Below are positions 828 through 62,561 of a DNA stretch of 64,000 nucleotides, one piece after another. Every line of letters begins with the position of its first letter. The first letter of the stretch is position 1. Source of the DNA: an uncultured Ignatzschineria sp. (GTDB lineage Bacteria; Pseudomonadota; Gammaproteobacteria; Cardiobacteriales; Wohlfahrtiimonadaceae); assembly GCA_945639195.1 (NCBI GenBank), contig CALZEE010000007.1, forward strand, positions 87,210-151,209, given 5' to 3'. A model generated the notes under the pieces. It made no database searches. It was not told the origin of the DNA and was given only the letters and a program-made list of their open reading frames with translations. Both the position numbers and the translations under genes were made by a program.

Positions 828-3800
828 ATGGCATTAGATGAGCAGTTGCAACAGTATGGCTTGAGCTTTAAGGATCTCCAGAGCCGCGAGGGTTTAGTTG
901 AGGTTGATACCCTTTTCCAACAACTATTACCGGAAGAAGTCTTACAAACTTTCTTACAGTGGAGACGTGGTGAGACCAGCTTTACAGCAATTGAAGAGTC
1001 TGAGTTTCAGATCGAATTAGGAAAATATGTAAATACCTTCGTCTCTAAGCTCTTTGGGCTTGAGAACGAAACAGAATTCTTGATTGATCGTGCCACACGT
1101 TATGAAACCTTGATGTTATTTAAGGCGCAATTTATCCAACGAGGCGCAAAACGTTATCGACAAGCGATTGAAGGTGACTTTGCAACGCACCATGCCGCAC
1201 TTTTAGCAAAAATCGGTGTGAGTGATGACGATCCTGCGTTAGAAGCTAAAATTGCCAAATACGCTTTAAAGCTCAATGCAGAAACAGATGCAACTGAGAT
1301 CGAAGCGATTCATCAGTGGGGATCTTTAGCTGAATCTGATCCTGTTGGCCAAGCGCGAGTGCAAGATTGGATTACTTTTAAATTCCCGGCAAGACTTGAT
1401 TTTGATAATCTTGTGGGCACAAAAGAAGCAACTTTCCAAGGCATTCCTGTCAAAGTAGGCACGAATCCGCTTCGTCATCGTGATGGTTTTGATCTGACAG
1501 ATAAGCGCATGGATCGTTACGAGATCGCGAGCGAAATTGAATATTGTAAGTATTGTCATGATCATGATGGTGACTTCTGTAGTACGGGCTTCCCTGTTAA
1601 GAAGGGCGATCCGGCACAAGGATTCCGTAAGAATCCCTTTAATGAAACATTAAGTGGCTGCCCACTTGATGAGATGATTTCAGAAATGCAGCGTCTTGAG
1701 AAAGATGGTTTATCAATTGGTTCACTTGCGATCACAATGGTCGAAAATCCAATGGTACCGGCAACAGGTCATCGTATCTGTAATGATTGTATGAAGTCAT
1801 GTATCTATCAGCGCGCAGAACCGGTCAATATCCCTCAAATTGAGACAGGCGTTTTATCAACGGTATTAGATCTTCCTTATGGGGTTGAGATTTACAACCT
1901 TCTTGCAAAATGGAATCCATTAAAGCCTGTCGACTATCTTCCTGCACCAGAAAATGGCCGTAAAGTATTGGTTGCCGGAATGGGACCTGCGGGCTTCACG
2001 ATGACGCATTATCTTGCTCAACAAGGGTGTCATGTTGTCGGGATTGATGGTTTGAAAATCGAACCGCTTCCAGAATCCGTCTTAACACAGCCGATTGAGC
2101 GATGGTCAGACTTAGAAGAGAATCTTGGGGATCGTATCCTTGCAGGTTTCGGGGGTGTTGCGGAGTATGGTATTACCGTTCGTTGGGATAAAAACTTCCT
2201 CAAACTCATCTACTTAACGCTTGCACGTCGTCAAAATGTTGAAGTTTACGGCGGGGTACGCTTGGGCGGTACTTTAACGTTAGATGATGCCTTTGATCTT
2301 GGGTTTGATCACGTTTCGCTTGCTGTTGGCGCAGGTCTTCCACGCGTCTTGAAGATTGATAATTCACTTGCAAAAGGGATGAAACAAGCTTCTGACTTCC
2401 TGATGGCTATGCAGCTTACAGGCGCGGCTAAAGATACTTCAATTGCGAACTTGCAAGTAAGATTGCCGGCAGTGGTCATTGGGGGCGGTTTAACTGCGAT
2501 TGATACCGCGACAGAAGTACAAGCGTACTATATTAAACAAGTTGAAAAAACCCTTCGCCGTGTAGAAGTATTGGGCGAAGCAAAAATCCGTGAAAATCTC
2601 TCACCAGAAGATGATGAGACGCTTACAGAATTCTTGAATCATGGTTTAGAAGTTCGTGCAGAGCGTGAGCGTGCAGCCGCATTAGGCATTGATCCTGACT
2701 TTAACGCACTCATTCAAAAATGGGGCGGAGTGATGATTGCTTATCGCCGTACGATGCAGGAATCTCCGGCATATACGCTTAATCATGAAGAGGTTACAAA
2801 AGCCTTTGAAGAGGGCATTCACTTTGGAGAAGAGCTCAACCCATTAGGCGTTGAACTGGATCAATTTGGTCATGTAAAAGCGATTCGCTTCACAAAATCA
2901 GGCGAAGAAGAAGTCACGGTTCCAGCGCGTGCGGTACTTGTTGCGGCAGGTACATCGCCTAATACCATTTATGGTACCGAATACCCAGGATCTCTTGAAA
3001 TTGAAGAGAAGCACCATTTCCAAGGATATGATCTTGAGGGTAATCTTGTACCGTTTAACTGGGGTACTAATAATAAAGAATCATTTGCACCGTTTACTTC
3101 ATTTAGACGCGGTGAAAAACGAGTATCTTACATTGGTGACACGCATCCCGTCTTTAACGGCAACGTGGTAAAAGCGATTGCGAGTGCGAAGAAATCATCA
3201 CGCTTCATTATGGAAGCGTTAGATCGTCTTCCTGAAAATACGCTTGCGAATGAAGATCTCTCTTTAACCATGCAAAATGGTTTAACGGCGACGATCCAAT
3301 CGATCGATGCTTCTAACCCAACCGTTTGTGAAGTGTGGGTAAAAGCGCCGATGGCTGCGAAAAACTTCAAGCCAGGGCAATTCTTTAGAATGCAGACGTT
3401 TGAAACAGGGAGTGAAATTGTAGATGGCACGCGCTTACAGATCCCGCTTCTTACGGTATCAGGTACGGGTTCAACAGATGATGCGATTCGCCTTTTAGTA
3501 TTCCAATGGGGAACAGGACAACGCCTTATTCCTTCATTAAAACCGGGCGATAAAGTTGTCTTAGCCGGCCCAACAGGAGCGCCAACAGATCTGCCATCTG
3601 GTAAAACTATTCTAGTTGTTGCTGGTCGTTGGGGCGCTGCGGTGATGCTCGATATCGGTTTTGCTCTGAGAAGTGCCGGTAATAAGGTGATTTACCTTGC
3701 GGCGATGGGCTCTAAAAATGATGTAGACCATATGGATGAGCTCGAAGAGGGCGCAGATCAAATCATCTGGGCGGTTGGTAAAGGTGATCCGATTGAAGCA

Positions 3801-4247
3801 AGACGCCCACAAGATCATTCAGTTGTTGAGTGGGATGTGATTAAACTTATCAATGAGCTTGATGATCAAGGCATTGTCGATATGAGTAAAGTCGATCGCT
3901 TAATGGCAATGGGTTCAACAGGAATGCTTAAAGGCTTCCAGAAAGAGCTCTCAGAAGGGGGCACATTACAACCACGCTTTAAAGAAGATGTGCATGTAAC
4001 GGGAACCATTGGTAGCCCAATGCAATGTATGATGAAAGGGGTGTGTGGTCAGTGTCTACAGTGGCAGATTGATCCGGCAACAGGCGAAAGAACAAAAGCG
4101 GTCTTTACCTGTTCTCAGCAAGATCAAGTTCTTAAAAATGTAGACCTTGATAACCTCACGGCACGTACAAGCCAAAACCGATTACCAGATATCATCTCAT
4201 CACATTGGTTAAGTCATGTGCTTGAAGAGAAGAAAAAATCAGAGTAA
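828..4247 (+). CDS. Large fused Fe-S/FAD oxidoreductase. It has a GltD (glutamate synthase small subunit)-like 4Fe-4S plus FAD/NAD(P)-binding core, a C-terminal PyrK/FNR-like domain ending in a 2Fe-2S Cys motif, and a roughly 230-aa N-terminal extension of unknown function.
   Basis: 1139 aa. Cys cluster CKYCHDHDGDFCSTG...GCPLDEM...ICNDCMKSC. Dinucleotide-binding VLVAGMGPAGFT and VVIGGGLTAIDTA. C-terminal CMMKGVCGQCLQWQIDP...FTCSQQD resembles the PyrK/NfnA 2Fe-2S motif. RBS GAGGAAGAAAC precedes the ATG. Confidence 0.7.
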   Translation: MALDEQLQQYGLSFKDLQSREGLVEVDTLFQQLLPEEVLQTFLQWRRGETSFTAIEESEFQIELGKYVNTFVSKLFGLENETEFLIDRATRYETLMLFKAQFIQRGAKRYRQAIEGDFATHHAALLAKIGVSDDDPALEAKIAKYALKLNAETDATEIEAIHQWGSLAESDPVGQARVQDWITFKFPARLDFDNLVGTKEATFQGIPVKVGTNPLRHRDGFDLTDKRMDRYEIASEIEYCKYCHDHDGDFCSTGFPVKKGDPAQGFRKNPFNETLSGCPLDEMISEMQRLEKDGLSIGSLAITMVENPMVPATGHRICNDCMKSCIYQRAEPVNIPQIETGVLSTVLDLPYGVEIYNLLAKWNPLKPVDYLPAPENGRKVLVAGMGPAGFTMTHYLAQQGCHVVGIDGLKIEPLPESVLTQPIERWSDLEENLGDRILAGFGGVAEYGITVRWDKNFLKLIYLTLARRQNVEVYGGVRLGGTLTLDDAFDLGFDHVSLAVGAGLPRVLKIDNSLAKGMKQASDFLMAMQLTGAAKDTSIANLQVRLPAVVIGGGLTAIDTATEVQAYYIKQVEKTLRRVEVLGEAKIRENLSPEDDETLTEFLNHGLEVRAERERAAALGIDPDFNALIQKWGGVMIAYRRTMQESPAYTLNHEEVTKAFEEGIHFGEELNPLGVELDQFGHVKAIRFTKSGEEEVTVPARAVLVAAGTSPNTIYGTEYPGSLEIEEKHHFQGYDLEGNLVPFNWGTNNKESFAPFTSFRRGEKRVSYIGDTHPVFNGNVVKAIASAKKSSRFIMEALDRLPENTLANEDLSLTMQNGLTATIQSIDASNPTVCEVWVKAPMAAKNFKPGQFFRMQTFETGSEIVDGTRLQIPLLTVSGTGSTDDAIRLLVFQWGTGQRLIPSLKPGDKVVLAGPTGAPTDLPSGKTILVVAGRWGAAVMLDIGFALRSAGNKVIYLAAMGSKNDVDHMDELEEGADQIIWAVGKGDPIEARRPQDHSVVEWDVIKLINELDDQGIVDMSKVDRLMAMGSTGMLKGFQKELSEGGTLQPRFKEDVHVTGTIGSPMQCMMKGVCGQCLQWQIDPATGERTKAVFTCSQQDQVLKNVDLDNLTARTSQNRLPDIISSHWLSHVLEEKKKSE

Positions 4248-4291
4248 TTGAATTGCCGGCATTAGTGCGGTAGTTAAGTATTATAAAGAGA

Positions 4292-4319
4292 GCCTCAACA
4301 GCGATGTTGGGGCTTTTTG
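4292..4319 (+). terminator. Rho-independent terminator after the oxidoreductase gene
   Basis: Hairpin GCCTCAACA-GCGA-TGTTGGGGC followed by TTTTTG. Confidence 0.55.
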
Positions 4320-4339
4320 TATCTGAGGGAAACGATCGT

Positions 4340-4646
4340 ATTAAACGCACTTGCATGGCGTCGGATTTAACGATTGTTGTGCTTCTCTAATCTAGCTCGC
4401 CGACTTTTAAAAGCGACTGGCTTTTAATCTGCTGGCGCGAGAGTGCCGGAAAACCGTACCCATTCGATCCAGCTTTGAGAATGCCGGGAAATTCACGCAT
4501 TAAACGCACTTACATGGAGTCGGATTTAACGATTGTTGTGCTTCTCTGATTCGGCTCGCCGACTTGTAAAAACTACTGGCTTTTAATCTACTGGCGCGAG
4601 ATTTTTGGAAAACTGCAAGTATTCGCCCCAGCTTTGAGAATGCCGG
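4340..4646. repeat. Two-copy tandem direct repeat with a period of about 159 bp and roughly 85% identity. It is non-coding and each unit holds an imperfect hairpin (GTCGG...CCGAC).
   Basis: Copy 1 spans 4340-4486 and copy 2 spans 4499-4646. Both run ATTAAACGCACTTRCATGGMGTCGGATTTAACGATTGTTGTGCTTCTCT...CTGGCTTTTAATCTRCTGGCGCGAG...CCAGCTTTGAGAATGCCGG. Confidence 0.8.
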
Positions 4647-4663
4647 AAGAAACATCGACGACC

Positions 4664-4975
4664 CTAAAACGCTTCGAGCTTAATCACATCATATGCCGGC
4701 ACTTCGTAAGGATGTGCGGACTTCATGGCATTCACCGCTGCTTGGATAAGAGTGGTTTCAATAATCATCTCTACACGCCATTCAGGGACTTTTTTCACTT
4801 CATCAATCGTGCCAGAATAAGGGTTGCTGCCCGGAAGGGGTTTGAATTGACCATCCCCGAGAACTTGCCATGCACAGTGAGAGTAGCTCCCAATTTGACC
4901 GCCGCCGACACTAAAAATAGCTTCTTTCACAGATTCAACATGCGAGTCTGGTACAAAAAATATGAATTTATACAT
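4664..4975 (-). CDS. Small conserved hypothetical protein of 103 aa. Family not recognised with confidence.
   Basis: ATG at 4973-4975 with RBS GGAGC. Product: MYKFIFFVPDSHVESVKEAIFSVGGGQIGSYSHCAWQVLGDGQFKP... The annotated TTG-extended ORF and the + strand antisense ORF 4634-5011 are less plausible. Confidence 0.45.
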   Translation of the reverse strand: MYKFIFFVPDSHVESVKEAIFSVGGGQIGSYSHCAWQVLGDGQFKPLPGSNPYSGTIDEVKKVPEWRVEMIIETTLIQAAVNAMKSAHPYEVPAYDVIKLEAF

Positions 4976-5433: not shown

Positions 5434-6093
5434 ATGGAGTTTTATTATAATCCCCCGATAGCGCCTTGGCTCAATATCCTCTATCAAGATGAAGAGATTA
5501 TGGTGGTGAATAAACCCGCCGAGCTTCTCTCCGTGCCGGGAAAAGGGGCAGAGCTTCATGATAGCGTGATTAGCCGTGTGCAGTGGGAATTTCCGATTGC
5601 CGAAACGGTGCATCGCCTCGATATGTCGACAAGCGGAATCTTAGTCATTGCCCTTACAAAAGATGCCGAGAGAGAACTTAAGCGACAATTTCGAGAGCGG
5701 GAAACATCAAAGCGTTATATTGCTGATGTCTGGGGAATAATGCCGGAAGATGAAGGGATCATTAATCTCCCATTAATTTGTGATTGGCCCAATCGCCCGA
5801 AACAGATGGTTTGCTATGAGCGCGGTAAAGAAGCGATTACGGAATATCGCGTTTTACTGCGAGATGAGAAGCATCACTTTACACGTGTTGAGCTCACACC
5901 GATTACCGGCAGATCCCACCAATTACGCGTACATCTCTTATCATTGGGGCATGTCATTCTTGGGGATCGTTTCTATGCGCATCCCGACGCGCTTATCGCC
6001 AGAGATCGTTTAGCGCTTCACGCAAGCGAGTTGGGATTTACGCATCCCAAAAGTGGTGAGTTTATGCAGTTTAAGGTGCCGTGTGACTTTTAA
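5434..6093 (+). CDS. rluA: rRNA/tRNA pseudouridine synthase A
   Basis: 219 aa, the same length as E. coli RluA. Near-identical blocks include ILYQDEEIMVVNKP, HRLDMSTSG, LKRQFRERE, LPLICDWPNRPKQ and ITGRSHQLRVH. Confidence 0.9.
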   Translation: MEFYYNPPIAPWLNILYQDEEIMVVNKPAELLSVPGKGAELHDSVISRVQWEFPIAETVHRLDMSTSGILVIALTKDAERELKRQFRERETSKRYIADVWGIMPEDEGIINLPLICDWPNRPKQMVCYERGKEAITEYRVLLRDEKHHFTRVELTPITGRSHQLRVHLLSLGHVILGDRFYAHPDALIARDRLALHASELGFTHPKSGEFMQFKVPCDF

Positions 6094-6314
6094 TAAGGGC
6101 TTTCTCTTCCTCTTTATTATATTAAAGTTATAATTGTTTTTAAGGGTGAAAGTGATGGATTATTGCATAATCCGGTTAGCTTTATCTTTTAATCAGTATT
6201 CATCCGGATTCAAATCATGAGTGATATCTATATCGGGGCTCGTGCTATCTTTCCTAGATATGGTCGTATTACATGTATTATTAATAGAAAAATAAAAGAG
6301 TATTAGGAGCGGTA

Positions 6315-7334
6315 ATGGCTGTGAATTTTTTTGAGCGAAAAGGAATTTCGCTCTCCCCAAGAGTTTATTTTATAGATGCTTTGAGTTATATGGCGTTGGG
6401 GCTTTTCTCATCTTTATTGATGGGGTTGATCGTAAAGACTTTAGGGCAACAACTTGGGATAGAATCCTTTGTTGAACTCGGTAGCTTTGCCATGAAGCCA
6501 GAAATTGTGGGTGGTGCGATTGGGGTAGCAATTGCCGCAAGTTTAAAGGCACCGCCATTGATTCTATTTTCTGCGGTATTTGTGGGCGCTTTTGGAAATT
6601 CACTTGGCGGGCCTGCCGGCGCGTATGTATCTGTGTTGATTGCGGTAGAATCTGCGAAGCTTATTTATAAGCTGACGCGATTAGATATTATTTTAGTACC
6701 ATTTGCGACCTTTATTGTGGGTTACTGGATTGCAAAATGGATCGGGATTCCGATTAGTGAGCTCATGAAAGGGCTCGGTGATCTGATTAACTGGTCTACA
6801 GAGCAACAACCTTTGGTGATGAGTATTTTGGTTGCGACGTTAATGGGATTAGCACTCACTGCACCGATCTCAAGTGCTGCGCTCTCCTTTATGCTTGGGC
6901 TTGATGGCTTGGCAGCGGGTGCTGCTGTCATTGGTTGTAGTGCGCAAATGATTGGTTTTGCAACGAGTAGTTATCGTGAAAATGGCTTTGGCGGTTTCTT
7001 AGCACAAGGTGTCGGGACATCGATGCTGCAGATTGCCAATATCATTAAGAATCCGCTTATTTTAATTCCGCCAACAGTCGCAGGGATGATCGCCGCGCCC
7101 ATTGGTGTTGTACTCTTTAATATGACTAATAATGCAGCGGGTGCCGGAATGGGAACGAGCGGTTTTGTTGGGCAATTTATGGCATTTGAGTCGATGGGCT
7201 TTTCTGTCACTACGGCTATTTATGTGCTTATTTGTCATTTCTTATTGCCGGCAATTGTGAGTTTTACAATCGCAAAATGGTTTTATAAAAAAGGCTGGAT
7301 TAAGCTCGGTGATATGAAGCTGAATTATGAATAG
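6315..7334 (+). CDS. Polytopic inner-membrane protein, tentatively PTS_EIIC_2-like. Function unknown.
   Basis: 339 aa, highly hydrophobic and Gly/Ala-rich with at least 8 predicted TM segments. The family assignment is from memory only. Confidence 0.45.
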   Translation: MAVNFFERKGISLSPRVYFIDALSYMALGLFSSLLMGLIVKTLGQQLGIESFVELGSFAMKPEIVGGAIGVAIAASLKAPPLILFSAVFVGAFGNSLGGPAGAYVSVLIAVESAKLIYKLTRLDIILVPFATFIVGYWIAKWIGIPISELMKGLGDLINWSTEQQPLVMSILVATLMGLALTAPISSAALSFMLGLDGLAAGAAVIGCSAQMIGFATSSYRENGFGGFLAQGVGTSMLQIANIIKNPLILIPPTVAGMIAAPIGVVLFNMTNNAAGAGMGTSGFVGQFMAFESMGFSVTTAIYVLICHFLLPAIVSFTIAKWFYKKGWIKLGDMKLNYE

Positions 7335-57105: not shown

Positions 57106-58128
<1,023 letters not shown>

Positions 58129-58278
58129 GCATTTGTCGTTGTACGAAGCTTAGGCGTTGTGTATCAAAGTGCGGGTTTCCCGCACTTGTTTTCTTAAAAT
58201 GATCTTTTAATAAGCCAGCTATCTTGCAATAAAGGCAAGATAGCGCGGTTTACTGTATGTGAAAAAGAGAGGAGTTCT

Positions 58279-58956
58279 ATGTTTCTCAATGCATACCAAA
58301 CATTGGATAAAGCTTGGCAAAAGCTTGAGATTTTTGTCACAGTTCTGATTCTATCCGCGATGACATTTGTGACTTTCACCTATACGATGCTCAACAATCT
58401 GTATACCCCTTTTTATAACTTGGCGGATTGGATTGCCGGAGATGAACCTTCGGTATTAGAAGATTTCTTCTTAAATGCCGGGGATACGATGATGGATCTT
58501 GCGGCCTCTATGAATTGGTCTAATCGTTTTACTGCCGCATGTTTTGCATGGTTGATTTTTTTCTGCATGTCCTACGGAGTTCGAATTGGCGGTCATATTG
58601 GGGTAGATGCCTTAGTAAAAGTATTCCATAAACGCGTGCAAAGAACCTTGGCTTACTTAGGTTTAGGGGCTTGTCTGCTCTATGGTGGCATTATGCTCTT
58701 TGCGAGTCTTGATTGGGTGATGAACTTCTATAAATTAGGAACATTTGCGGAAGATCTGGATCGCTTTGGGGTGAGACGTTGGCATATTACGATGATTGTT
58801 CCTATTGGATTTACACTCTTAATCCTTCGTTATTTAGAAGTTGGCTATCGAATTATTACGCATCAGCAAGATGGGCTTGGGTTAGCCGATGAAGCCAAAG
58901 ATGCAATCGAAGAGATTGCCGGGGTCGAAGGAATTAAATTAGGAGAGAAGCAATGA
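58279..58956 (+). CDS. dctQ: TRAP transporter small permease (DctQ), copy 1
   Basis: 225 aa, 4 TM segments, overlaps dctM by 4 bp. Confidence 0.85.
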   Translation: MFLNAYQTLDKAWQKLEIFVTVLILSAMTFVTFTYTMLNNLYTPFYNLADWIAGDEPSVLEDFFLNAGDTMMDLAASMNWSNRFTAACFAWLIFFCMSYGVRIGGHIGVDALVKVFHKRVQRTLAYLGLGACLLYGGIMLFASLDWVMNFYKLGTFAEDLDRFGVRRWHITMIVPIGFTLLILRYLEVGYRIITHQQDGLGLADEAKDAIEEIAGVEGIKLGEKQ

Positions 58957-60692: not shown

Positions 60693-61745
<1,053 letters not shown>

Positions 61746-61883
61746 CTGTATTACCTAAGCAGTACAGTATTAAATCCCTCATTTTTTGAGGGATATTCAT
61801 ATTCTTTTAATCTCCCTATCTTTTTTAAACCCCACAACTTGTGGCTAGGAGAGGGAGGCTATTTTGTCAAAAAAGGATGTTAT

Positions 61884-62561
61884 ATGTTTTTTAATCTATA
61901 TCAAGCGTTAGATAAGGGTTGGCAAAAGGTCGAGGTTTTTATTACCGTTGCTATTTTGACGCTGATGACCTTCGTGACTTTTGTCTATACGATGCTCAAT
62001 AATCTCTATACGCCCTTTTATAGTTTAGCGGATAAATTTTCTGGCGATGAGCCCTCTGCATTAGAGGATATCTTCTTAAATATCGGGGATACGATGATGG
62101 ATCTCGCTGCATCCATGAACTGGTCTAATCGCTTTACCGCAGCCTGTTTTGCATGGTTGATCTTCTTTTGTATGTCTTATGGTGTTCGGATTGGTGGGCA
62201 TATTGGCGTGGATGCGTTAGTGAAGCTCTTTAAAAAAAGAACTCAACGATTTTTAGCATATGTGGGTTTAGGAGCTTGTCTCCTTTATGGTGTAATTATG
62301 TTTTTTGCGAGCCTTGATTGGGTCTTTAATTTTTATCAGCTAGGGACTTTCGCAGAAGATCTGGATCGCTTTGGTGTGAGACGTTGGCATATTACGATGA
62401 TTGTTCCGATCGGTTTCTTATTGCTTTTTTTACGATTTTTAGAAGTCGGATATCGAATTATCACCCATCAACAAGATGGTCTTGGTTTAGCAGACGAGGC
62501 TAAAGATGCTTTAGATGAAATTGCGAGTGCTGAAAACATTCAACTAGGAGACAAACAATGA
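61884..62561 (+). CDS. dctQ: TRAP small permease (DctQ), copy 2
   Basis: Start MFFNLYQALDKGW parallels copy 1 MFLNAYQTLDKAW. RBS AAGGA. Confidence 0.85.
   Translation: MFFNLYQALDKGWQKVEVFITVAILTLMTFVTFVYTMLNNLYTPFYSLADKFSGDEPSALEDIFLNIGDTMMDLAASMNWSNRFTAACFAWLIFFCMSYGVRIGGHIGVDALVKLFKKRTQRFLAYVGLGACLLYGVIMFFASLDWVFNFYQLGTFAEDLDRFGVRRWHITMIVPIGFLLLFLRFLEVGYRIITHQQDGLGLADEAKDALDEIASAENIQLGDKQ

Follow-up and report, generated by a model that had tools for sequence, protein, structure and literature searches.

The REP, BIME, and REPIN elements of Enterobacteria and Pseudomonas are short imperfect palindromes that are located outside of genes, frequently behind a gene at its 3′-end or between convergent genes. 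They are found singly, in tandem, or in alternating orientation, their pairing is strand-asymmetric and includes G·T or G·U pairs, and they are passively transcribed as hairpins in 3′-UTRs. A genome typically contains many scattered copies, and a RAYT gene, which encodes a Y1 transposase, is associated with them. The ERIC/IRU, RUP, BOX, and bcr1 repeats are non-coding units of ~100-160 bp that are predicted to fold. Tandem arrangements are also known for sRNA genes, e.g. PrrF1/PrrF2 and OmrA/OmrB, which are transcribed from promoters of their own, end in Rho-independent terminators, and are conserved in synteny. MITEs, lastly, are small (<500 bp) non-coding units that differ in their insertion sites between relatives and are characterised by TIRs, a target-site duplication, and a parent IS whose ends correspond to theirs. 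The Correia elements (CREE) are a MITE of Neisseria with a length of 69-151 bp and 26-bp TIRs that start with TATAGTGGATTAA (PMC5039591).

The array described here belongs to an uncultured Ignatzschineria species and was analysed in its genomic context, i.e. a stretch of 64 kb of DNA that is called the window throughout. Tandem Repeats Finder located the array at 4340-4646, with a period of 159, 1.9 copies, 85% matches, 0% indels, and a score of 467, which makes it by far the strongest tandem array of the window. When unit 1 was used as a blastn query against the window, unit 2 was retrieved with 85.8% identity over 148 nt (E = 1e-45), and all remaining matches were at chance level. A direct-repeat search found a pair in register at 4327-4485 and 4486-4644 with 84% identity. 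These searches bore out the original prediction of a two-copy 159-bp tandem repeat with ~85% identity; the similarity spans from ~4327 to ~4657, i.e. ~2.1 units, and thus extends a little beyond the length first stated. Unit 1, called "type A" (AATCTAGC, TTTTAAAAGCGAC, GAGTGCCGG), occupies 4340-4498 on the plus strand, as delimited by Tandem Repeats Finder, alignment, and blastn. Unit 2, called "type B", occupies 4499-4657 on the same strand, and its last ~11 nt have diverged. In the pairwise alignment, the blocks GTCGGATTTAACGATTGTTGTGCTTCTCT, GCTCGCCGACTT, ACTGGCTTTTAATCT, CTGGCGCGAGA, and CCAGCTTTGAGAATGCCGG are invariant between the two units.

The array sits between the terminator of an oxidoreductase gene and the stop codon of a convergent small gene (4664), so that the flanks are as claimed beforehand. 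The oxidoreductase gene (828-4247, plus strand) lies outside the repeat and was taken from the ORF list; it encodes an FAD/NAD oxidoreductase of 1139 aa, for which RP005_N and Pyr_redox_2 were found by a Pfam search with the identical gene of contig L001. Its intrinsic terminator is located at 4287-4319 (plus strand) and consists of a hairpin of −19.7 kcal/mol (z = −4.27) and a subsequent UUUUUG. The minus strand of the same segment forms a weaker hairpin (−10.7 kcal/mol, z = −2.75), which is followed by UCUCUUUAU, and because of this the terminator is predicted to work possibly in both directions. On the other side of the array, the minus-strand ORF at 4664-4975, from the same list, encodes a protein of 103 aa that is YqfO/NIF3-like according to some sources and is referred to as the small protein in the following.

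From 5′ to 3′ on the plus strand, each unit contains a series of inverted repeats. The 5′ segment GTCGG…CCGAC (4360-4404 in unit 1 and 4519-4563 in unit 2) was recognised in the sequence and by RNAalifold. It is followed by an A/T-rich mini-palindrome, which reads AAAAGC-GACTG-GCTTTT in unit 1 (4409-4425), where it is part of the genus-conserved core, and occurs as the variant AAAAAC-TACTG-GCTTTT in unit 2 (4568-4584). The imperfect core hairpin GCTGG-CGCGAG…CATTCG-CCAGC follows at 4431-4473 in unit 1 (−17.1 kcal/mol, z = −2.1) and at 4590-4632 in unit 2 (−13.5 kcal/mol), and the two copies score 78.9 and 77.9 bits, respectively, with the covariance model R1. Each unit has the word AATGCCGG at its 3′-end (4480-4487 and 4639-4646), which is a copy of a word that is over-represented throughout the genus, and unit 1 has an additional TGCCGG within the hairpin (4444-4449). 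The motifs that had been named for both copies, i.e. GTCGG…CCGAC, CTGGCGCGAG, and the terminal CCAGCTTTGAGAATGCCGG, were thus all recovered. TIRs were not seen in the window units, for which a comparison of the ends by eye gave a short direct similarity and no inverted similarity, and no target-site duplication could be defined for them.

In metagenome contigs whose small protein is identical or 98-99% identical, the array likewise occupies this spacer, and most of the short-read contigs stop inside the repeat. The copy number is variable. One unit is present in L003 and L093, two units in the window and L001, at least two in L091 and L095, and two units plus the start of a third in L004. The single-copy alleles keep the entire unit, with a 12-nt internal deletion in that of L093. 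Unit 1 of the window and the gene-proximal L004 unit have 98% identity, but the identity between unit 1 and the neighbouring unit 2 is only 86%. Unit 2 has 94-95% identity to units of L001, L004, and L005. The two units of L001 are 97% alike. Because the unit types are shuffled between array positions among strains and the copy number varies, the sequences appear to bear the signature of an old array with unequal crossing-over or gene conversion, and not of a single recent slip. The earlier statement that the repeat is "not a recent slip" therefore stands for the unit types, which are old, but not for the array, which is still dynamic and ranges from one to at least three copies. Assemblies from short reads of this species are routinely interrupted here, and the strain-variable copy number is a possible typing marker.

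Strains with an identical small protein also differ in their genes, as revealed by a comparison of L002 (2297-4810) with L001 and the window (5434-7334). L002 contains genes for a peptidase M20 and an MFS sugar transporter between the genes for PTS EIIC and a pseudouridine synthase, and both are absent in L001 and the window. The M20 peptidase gene is also present at this position in L107/L108 and L109.

Within the window, no further copies were found by blastn with a word size of 7, by nhmmer with a profile, or by the covariance model with filters off, for which the next best score was 9.6 bits. For comparison, relatives were searched. In species-representative genomes, the nearest relatives of the small protein have 74-82% identity and belong to Ignatzschineria MAGs and I. 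ureiclastica; those of Wohlfahrtiimonas come next. Among 109 loci with a total of 996 kb, nhmmer (E < 0.05) yielded no match beyond the same-species contigs and three loci, i.e. L009, L011, and L100. No repeat above threshold was found by nhmmer and R1 in L008, L098/99, L102/103, L107/108, L109, and L110. The region of the small gene and the oxidoreductase gene is devoid of the repeat in L008, L009, L098, L102, L107, and L109, although the two genes are adjacent or close to one another. A copy of the core is located just after the stop codon of the small gene in three lineages, represented by the window, L100, and L011.

L009 is from an uncultured Ignatzschineria whose small gene has 79% amino acid identity to that of the window. 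Its spacer between the small gene and the oxidoreductase gene has 188 nt and contains only a bidirectional terminator. Two tandem units of ~155 bp are instead located behind a PTS EIIC gene, in sense orientation in the 3′-region of this gene. Their nhmmer E-values were 2e-11 and 3e-8 with the unit profile and 4e-31 and 2e-29 with the A2 profile.

In L011 (I. ureiclastica), eight copies of the 3′ core of the unit were found within 12 kb, distributed over two spacers and both strands, with R1 scores of 48-69 bits. One of the spacers is right after the small gene, and the other has a length of 878 nt and contains copies that alternate in orientation. A transposase was not found beside this cluster, the flanking ORFs of which encode a transporter and an ABC permease. 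L011 also contains inverted repeats of ~145 nt (292-437 and 5821-5967; 81-87% identity) that bracket 5.4 kb of DNA immediately upstream of the small gene, and the bracketed segment may be composite or invertible.

L100 (GCA_040777185.1) has three copies of ~135-146 bp in three spacers within 20 kb, with R1 scores of 24-50 bits. The TIRs of copy 1 are imperfect and match at 16 of 21 positions (TATAGTCATTTTGGTTTAAAAA versus TATAGTGAAATCGGCTTAAAAA), and those of copies 2 and 3 are weaker. The copies abut TA or TATA, and an unambiguous duplication was not found. In comparison with L102, L100 has an extra block of ~215 nt directly after the stop codon of the small gene, while the remainder of the spacer can be aligned and the terminator is shared. 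The spacer between the glu-synthase and TamB genes of L102 (10288-10817), which is orthologous, contains a decayed element of ~100 nt that has the termini of the L100 repeat (TATCGTGAAATCG…AAAATGACGATA) and lacks half of the core hairpin. A 62-codon ORF beside copy 2 of L100 (10433-10621, minus strand) duplicates an internal part of the adjacent gene, which encodes an oxidoreductase of 1141 aa (…GIDGLKIEPLP…GFGGVAEYGITVRWDKNF). This suggests that the repeat insertion came with, or promoted, a local rearrangement.

L121 and L122 yielded only a marginal R1 match of 13.5 bits. They contain a hairpin TTGCCGGTGCAT…CTATCCGGCAA just after a peptidase gene (L121 5943-6006, L122 2645-2708). The over-represented word forms the arms of this hairpin, which may be unrelated or a very divergent member of the family. 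The exact 20-mer GGATTTAACGATTGTTGTGC had no match in species-representative genomes. A degenerate pattern with 19 specified bases matched twice in metagenome contigs; both matches failed the unit profile and were discarded as chance. Collections of plasmids and phages contained no blastn match. A literature search for genome repeats of Ignatzschineria yielded genome announcements and ecology papers, none of which indicates such a repeat family in its title or abstract. The possibility that the unit "occurs nowhere else", which had been raised as an argument against a dispersed element, thus applies to the 64-kb window and does not apply to the genus.

The core that is common to all repeat-bearing lineages comprises ~70 nt and consists of the A/T-rich mini-palindrome and a subsequent imperfect hairpin of ~43 nt (GCNGGCGCGAG…CATTC…CCN'GC), which has the general form GC-N-GG-CGCGAG…CATTC…CC-N'-GC. 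The mini-palindrome precedes the hairpin in most lineages and reads AAAAGC-N5-GCTTTT in the window, AAAAGCGCTTTT in L100, and GAAAGC..GCTTTC in L009. Only the units of the window species and L009 have the 5′ ~65 nt in common, within which GTCGG…CCGAC is located. The unit length ranges from 135 to 159 bp across lineages, and the modules that flank the core vary, with imperfect TIRs in one genome and clusters of alternating orientation in another.

To quantify the pairing, a core structure written by hand on the plus strand of the window was applied to 19 copies. Of the cells, 80.2% were paired, compared with 36-48% after a shift of the 3′ partner by 1-3 columns. At the third closing pair, 11 copies have U-A, four have C-G, and four have G-C. 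The L100 copies, which were outside the training set of the model, fit the structure, and their addition yielded values of 81.4% versus 35-49%. In the plus orientation of the window, 47 cells were paired only as G·U, versus 10 A/C cells that would be G·U only on the other strand, a count that is biased insofar as the plus strand was used to choose the structure and many of the sequences are related. The count is no more than a hint at folding of one particular strand, either in RNA or in single-stranded DNA. The RNAalifold energies were lower for the plus strand than for the minus strand (−19.3 versus −16.4 kcal/mol for the unit, −4.4 versus −0.9 kcal/mol for the core). In the 5′ segment, RNAalifold predicted the alternative pairing GUCGGAUU/GAUUCGGC, a plus-strand helix that is possible only with several G·U pairs and for which the alignment contained no double compensatory change. 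The folding energy of the whole unit was no better than that of shuffled sequences (z = −0.6 to −1.0).

The features described above for REP, BIME, and REPIN elements recur in the Ignatzschineria repeat, i.e. the imperfect palindromes in extragenic positions at gene 3′-ends or between convergent genes, the single, tandem, and alternating arrangements, the strand asymmetry, and presumably the passive transcription. The L011 cluster in particular resembles BIMEs or REPINs. However, the tetranucleotide GT[AG]G is absent from the foot of the hairpin, where the 5′ bases are ATCT, AACT, ACTT, or CAAA and the 3′ bases are NNTGAGA or CATGCAT. The copy density is very low in the window, with one locus in 64 kb, and dispersed copies range from eight in 12 kb (L011) and three in 20 kb (L100) to zero in five other relatives. 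Furthermore, the window units have 159 bp, are arranged head to tail, and contain ~115 nt in addition to each hairpin. Unlike the inverted pairs of REP, BIME, and REPIN elements, the arrays of the window and L009 are direct tandems, and alternating orientation is confined to L011.

The size of 135-159 bp and the insertion polymorphism between relatives (L100 versus L102, and L008 and L009 versus the window) are typical of MITEs. The size class, the intergenic location, and the presence/absence differences between relatives are shared with CREE, and the imperfect TIRs of the L100 copies also start with TATAGTG. However, the agreement with the CREE terminus tatagtggattaac/aaatt... is limited to these 7 nt of the TIR in L100 only, and the interior is unrelated (PMC5039591). 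In addition, the window units have no detectable TIR, and the host lineage is a different one, the Cardiobacteriales. ERIC/IRU, RUP, BOX, and bcr1 are alike in size, non-coding character, and modularity, and BOX modules are likewise recombined between copies, but head-to-tail amplification of an entire unit is unusual in these families. The tandem sRNA pairs PrrF1/PrrF2 and OmrA/OmrB resemble the array in the head-to-tail arrangement of two non-coding units of ~150 nt and ~85% identity within one spacer, whereas a promoter, a terminator, and conserved synteny were not found for the window units. The repeat family is best explained as a new, genus-specific representative of the class of small intergenic palindromic or MITE-like repeats, and it is not assigned to one of the named families.

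In our view, the array is probably a two-copy tandem of a ~159-bp non-coding unit from an Ignatzschineria-specific, hairpin-bearing intergenic family, which behaves in the manner of MITEs or REP/BIME elements. The family is dispersed in the genus, it is modular and variable in its presence or absence, and it forms locally unstable tandem arrays. Dispersal is established for the relatives, and a single locus in 64 kb is known from the window species. The MITE/REP-like element among the originally proposed candidates is thus favoured by the occurrence of the core at other intergenic sites, by its presence in both orientations, by the presence/absence differences, and by the TIRs in one lineage. 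A single unit would have been seeded in the spacer that is delimited by the stop codon of the small gene and by the terminator shared by the two convergent genes. Growth and shrinkage of the array would have followed, with unequal crossing-over, slippage, or gene conversion among the units as the mechanism.

The units would lack a promoter of their own and would be transcribed passively, mainly as part of the 3′-UTR of the small gene and antisense to the units. The array is probably located in this 3′-UTR because no terminator is predicted between the stop codon at 4664 and the array; the first minus-strand hairpin with a U-rich tail is the reverse of the 4287-4319 terminator. Some plus-strand read-through past the oxidoreductase terminator is likely. 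Any effect would be incidental, e.g. a hairpin at the 3′-end that protects or insulates the mRNA. Spreading could proceed via a strand-specific single-stranded hairpin, which would account for the excess of G·U(T) pairs in one orientation. The repeat would be a further example of hairpin repeats that colonise the space between convergent genes, and with it an undescribed family and a covariance model are defined for a little-studied, fly- and wound-associated genus.

The excess of G·U pairs (47 versus 10) and the retention of the core over distances of ~75-80% protein identity could instead indicate a selected RNA structure, and the position of the core just after the small-gene stop in three lineages could indicate function and not insertion preference. 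The conserved ~70-nt core, or the entire unit, would then be a functional, strand-specific structured RNA, i.e. a tandem sRNA or a 3′-UTR element that acts in cis and is transcribed from the plus strand of the window. We regard this alternative as unlikely. It is consistent with the retention of the hairpin by compensatory changes, the lower plus-strand energies, and the sense orientation of the L009 array in the 3′-region of its gene. Inspection by eye also revealed TTGAGA-N17-(T/C)ATTAA across each unit junction, which could be a weak promoter, but this pattern is not retained by the counterparts of L009 and L100, and a consensus scan of 4320-4663 predicted neither promoters nor terminators in the units. 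The units themselves were rejected as terminators, as the hairpin has no subsequent U-tract and the scan was empty. The search of Rfam 15 yielded nothing at the gathering threshold for the whole window, only chance-level matches at E ≤ 10 for the region, and no family in the repeat regions of L009 and L011. A match to ctRNA_p42d (19.9 bits) was discarded as chance-level; it coincides with the terminator of the oxidoreductase gene and lies outside the repeat. Furthermore, the whole unit does not fold better than shuffled sequences, the copies are non-syntenic and have both orientations relative to neighbouring genes, and the choice of a plus-strand structure favours G·U cells in this orientation. 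The duplicated sRNA gene of the original prediction is disfavoured by the same observations, i.e. the lack of a promoter, a terminator, and an Rfam match, the lack of synteny in sister genomes, and the z-values of −0.6 to −1.0. It is distinctly improbable that the ~70-nt two-hairpin core is an undescribed strand-specific Ignatzschineria RNA motif, e.g. a 3′-UTR stabiliser, a processing signal, or an sRNA, that is under selection, has been multiplied in tandem here, and has a closing stem TGC-N-GG that is related to AWTGCCGG. If true, this would tie the repeat to an uptake-like or recombination-related system that maintains AWTGCCGG. A new question arises only if the core is a functional RNA or is linked to the TGCCGG word.

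The inverted repeats would also be compatible with an array of binding sites in double-stranded DNA, at which a nucleoid-associated or regulatory protein recognises the dyads, or with an insulator between convergent units. Each unit has several dyads (TCGGCTCGCCGA, AAAAGC..GCTTTT, and the core palindrome), and the location between convergent genes would be suitable, but unit 1 and L004_p have a broken TCGGCTCGCCGA dyad, changes of the G·U type keep the pairing but would break a palindrome in double-stranded DNA, and the loci have no conserved regulator gene beside the repeat, so that we give this explanation a low probability. A plain local duplication of spacer DNA, without family or function, has a very low probability. 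The occurrence at only one place in the 64-kb window, the differences in copy number among strains, and the blurred boundaries, which are expected for slippage between short microhomologies of the GGGAA type, would be in line with it. However, it is largely refuted by the related units or cores, with strong scores, in at least three other Ignatzschineria genomes, and the single-copy alleles of L003 and L093 carry a full unit. Least credible is a degraded coding remnant, e.g. of a tandemly repeated gene for a small basic peptide on the minus strand. The period is a multiple of three (159 nt, 53 codons) and type B has an open minus-strand frame, with a 51-codon ORF at 4500-4655 in unit 2, but unit 1 has stops in all frames, including the one that is open in type B, and the units share no conserved ORF. 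The variable sites are spread evenly over the codon positions (17/14/16), the L009 units contain non-triplet indels, and the sole Pfam match, a plant LysM domain, had 19 bits versus a cut-off of 36 and looks like chance. The hairpin-bearing intergenic family thus remains the preferred explanation of the array.

The over-representation of TGCCGG that had been noticed at the unit ends was confirmed for the window, with 63 copies versus 7.9 expected, and 43 copies of the reverse complement. Taken together, TGCCGG/CCGGCA occurs 106 times in 64 kb versus 14 expected, i.e. ~1 per 600 bp, both within genes, where several reading frames are used, and in non-coding DNA. It can be extended to A-W-TGCCGG-C-A and is often part of the palindrome TGCCGGCA; examples in the window are located at 4254-4261, 4444-4449, 4482-4487, and 4641-4646. 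The word is enriched 4-11-fold in all Ignatzschineria loci fetched, including L008, L009, L011, L100, L102, L107, and L109, whereas loci of Wohlfahrtiimonas, Moraxella, and Acinetobacter have 0-1 copies and no enrichment. By analogy, this genus-specific over-represented word is reminiscent of DNA-uptake or Chi-like sequences. The closing stem TGC-N-GG of the repeat resembles it. A role of inverted TGCCGG pairs as terminators was considered and dropped, as only two such pairs exist in 64 kb. The window also contains long direct repeats at 57108-58573 and 60734-62178, with blocks of at least 300 nt and 78% identity at a distance of ~3.6 kb, which look like tandem paralogous genes.
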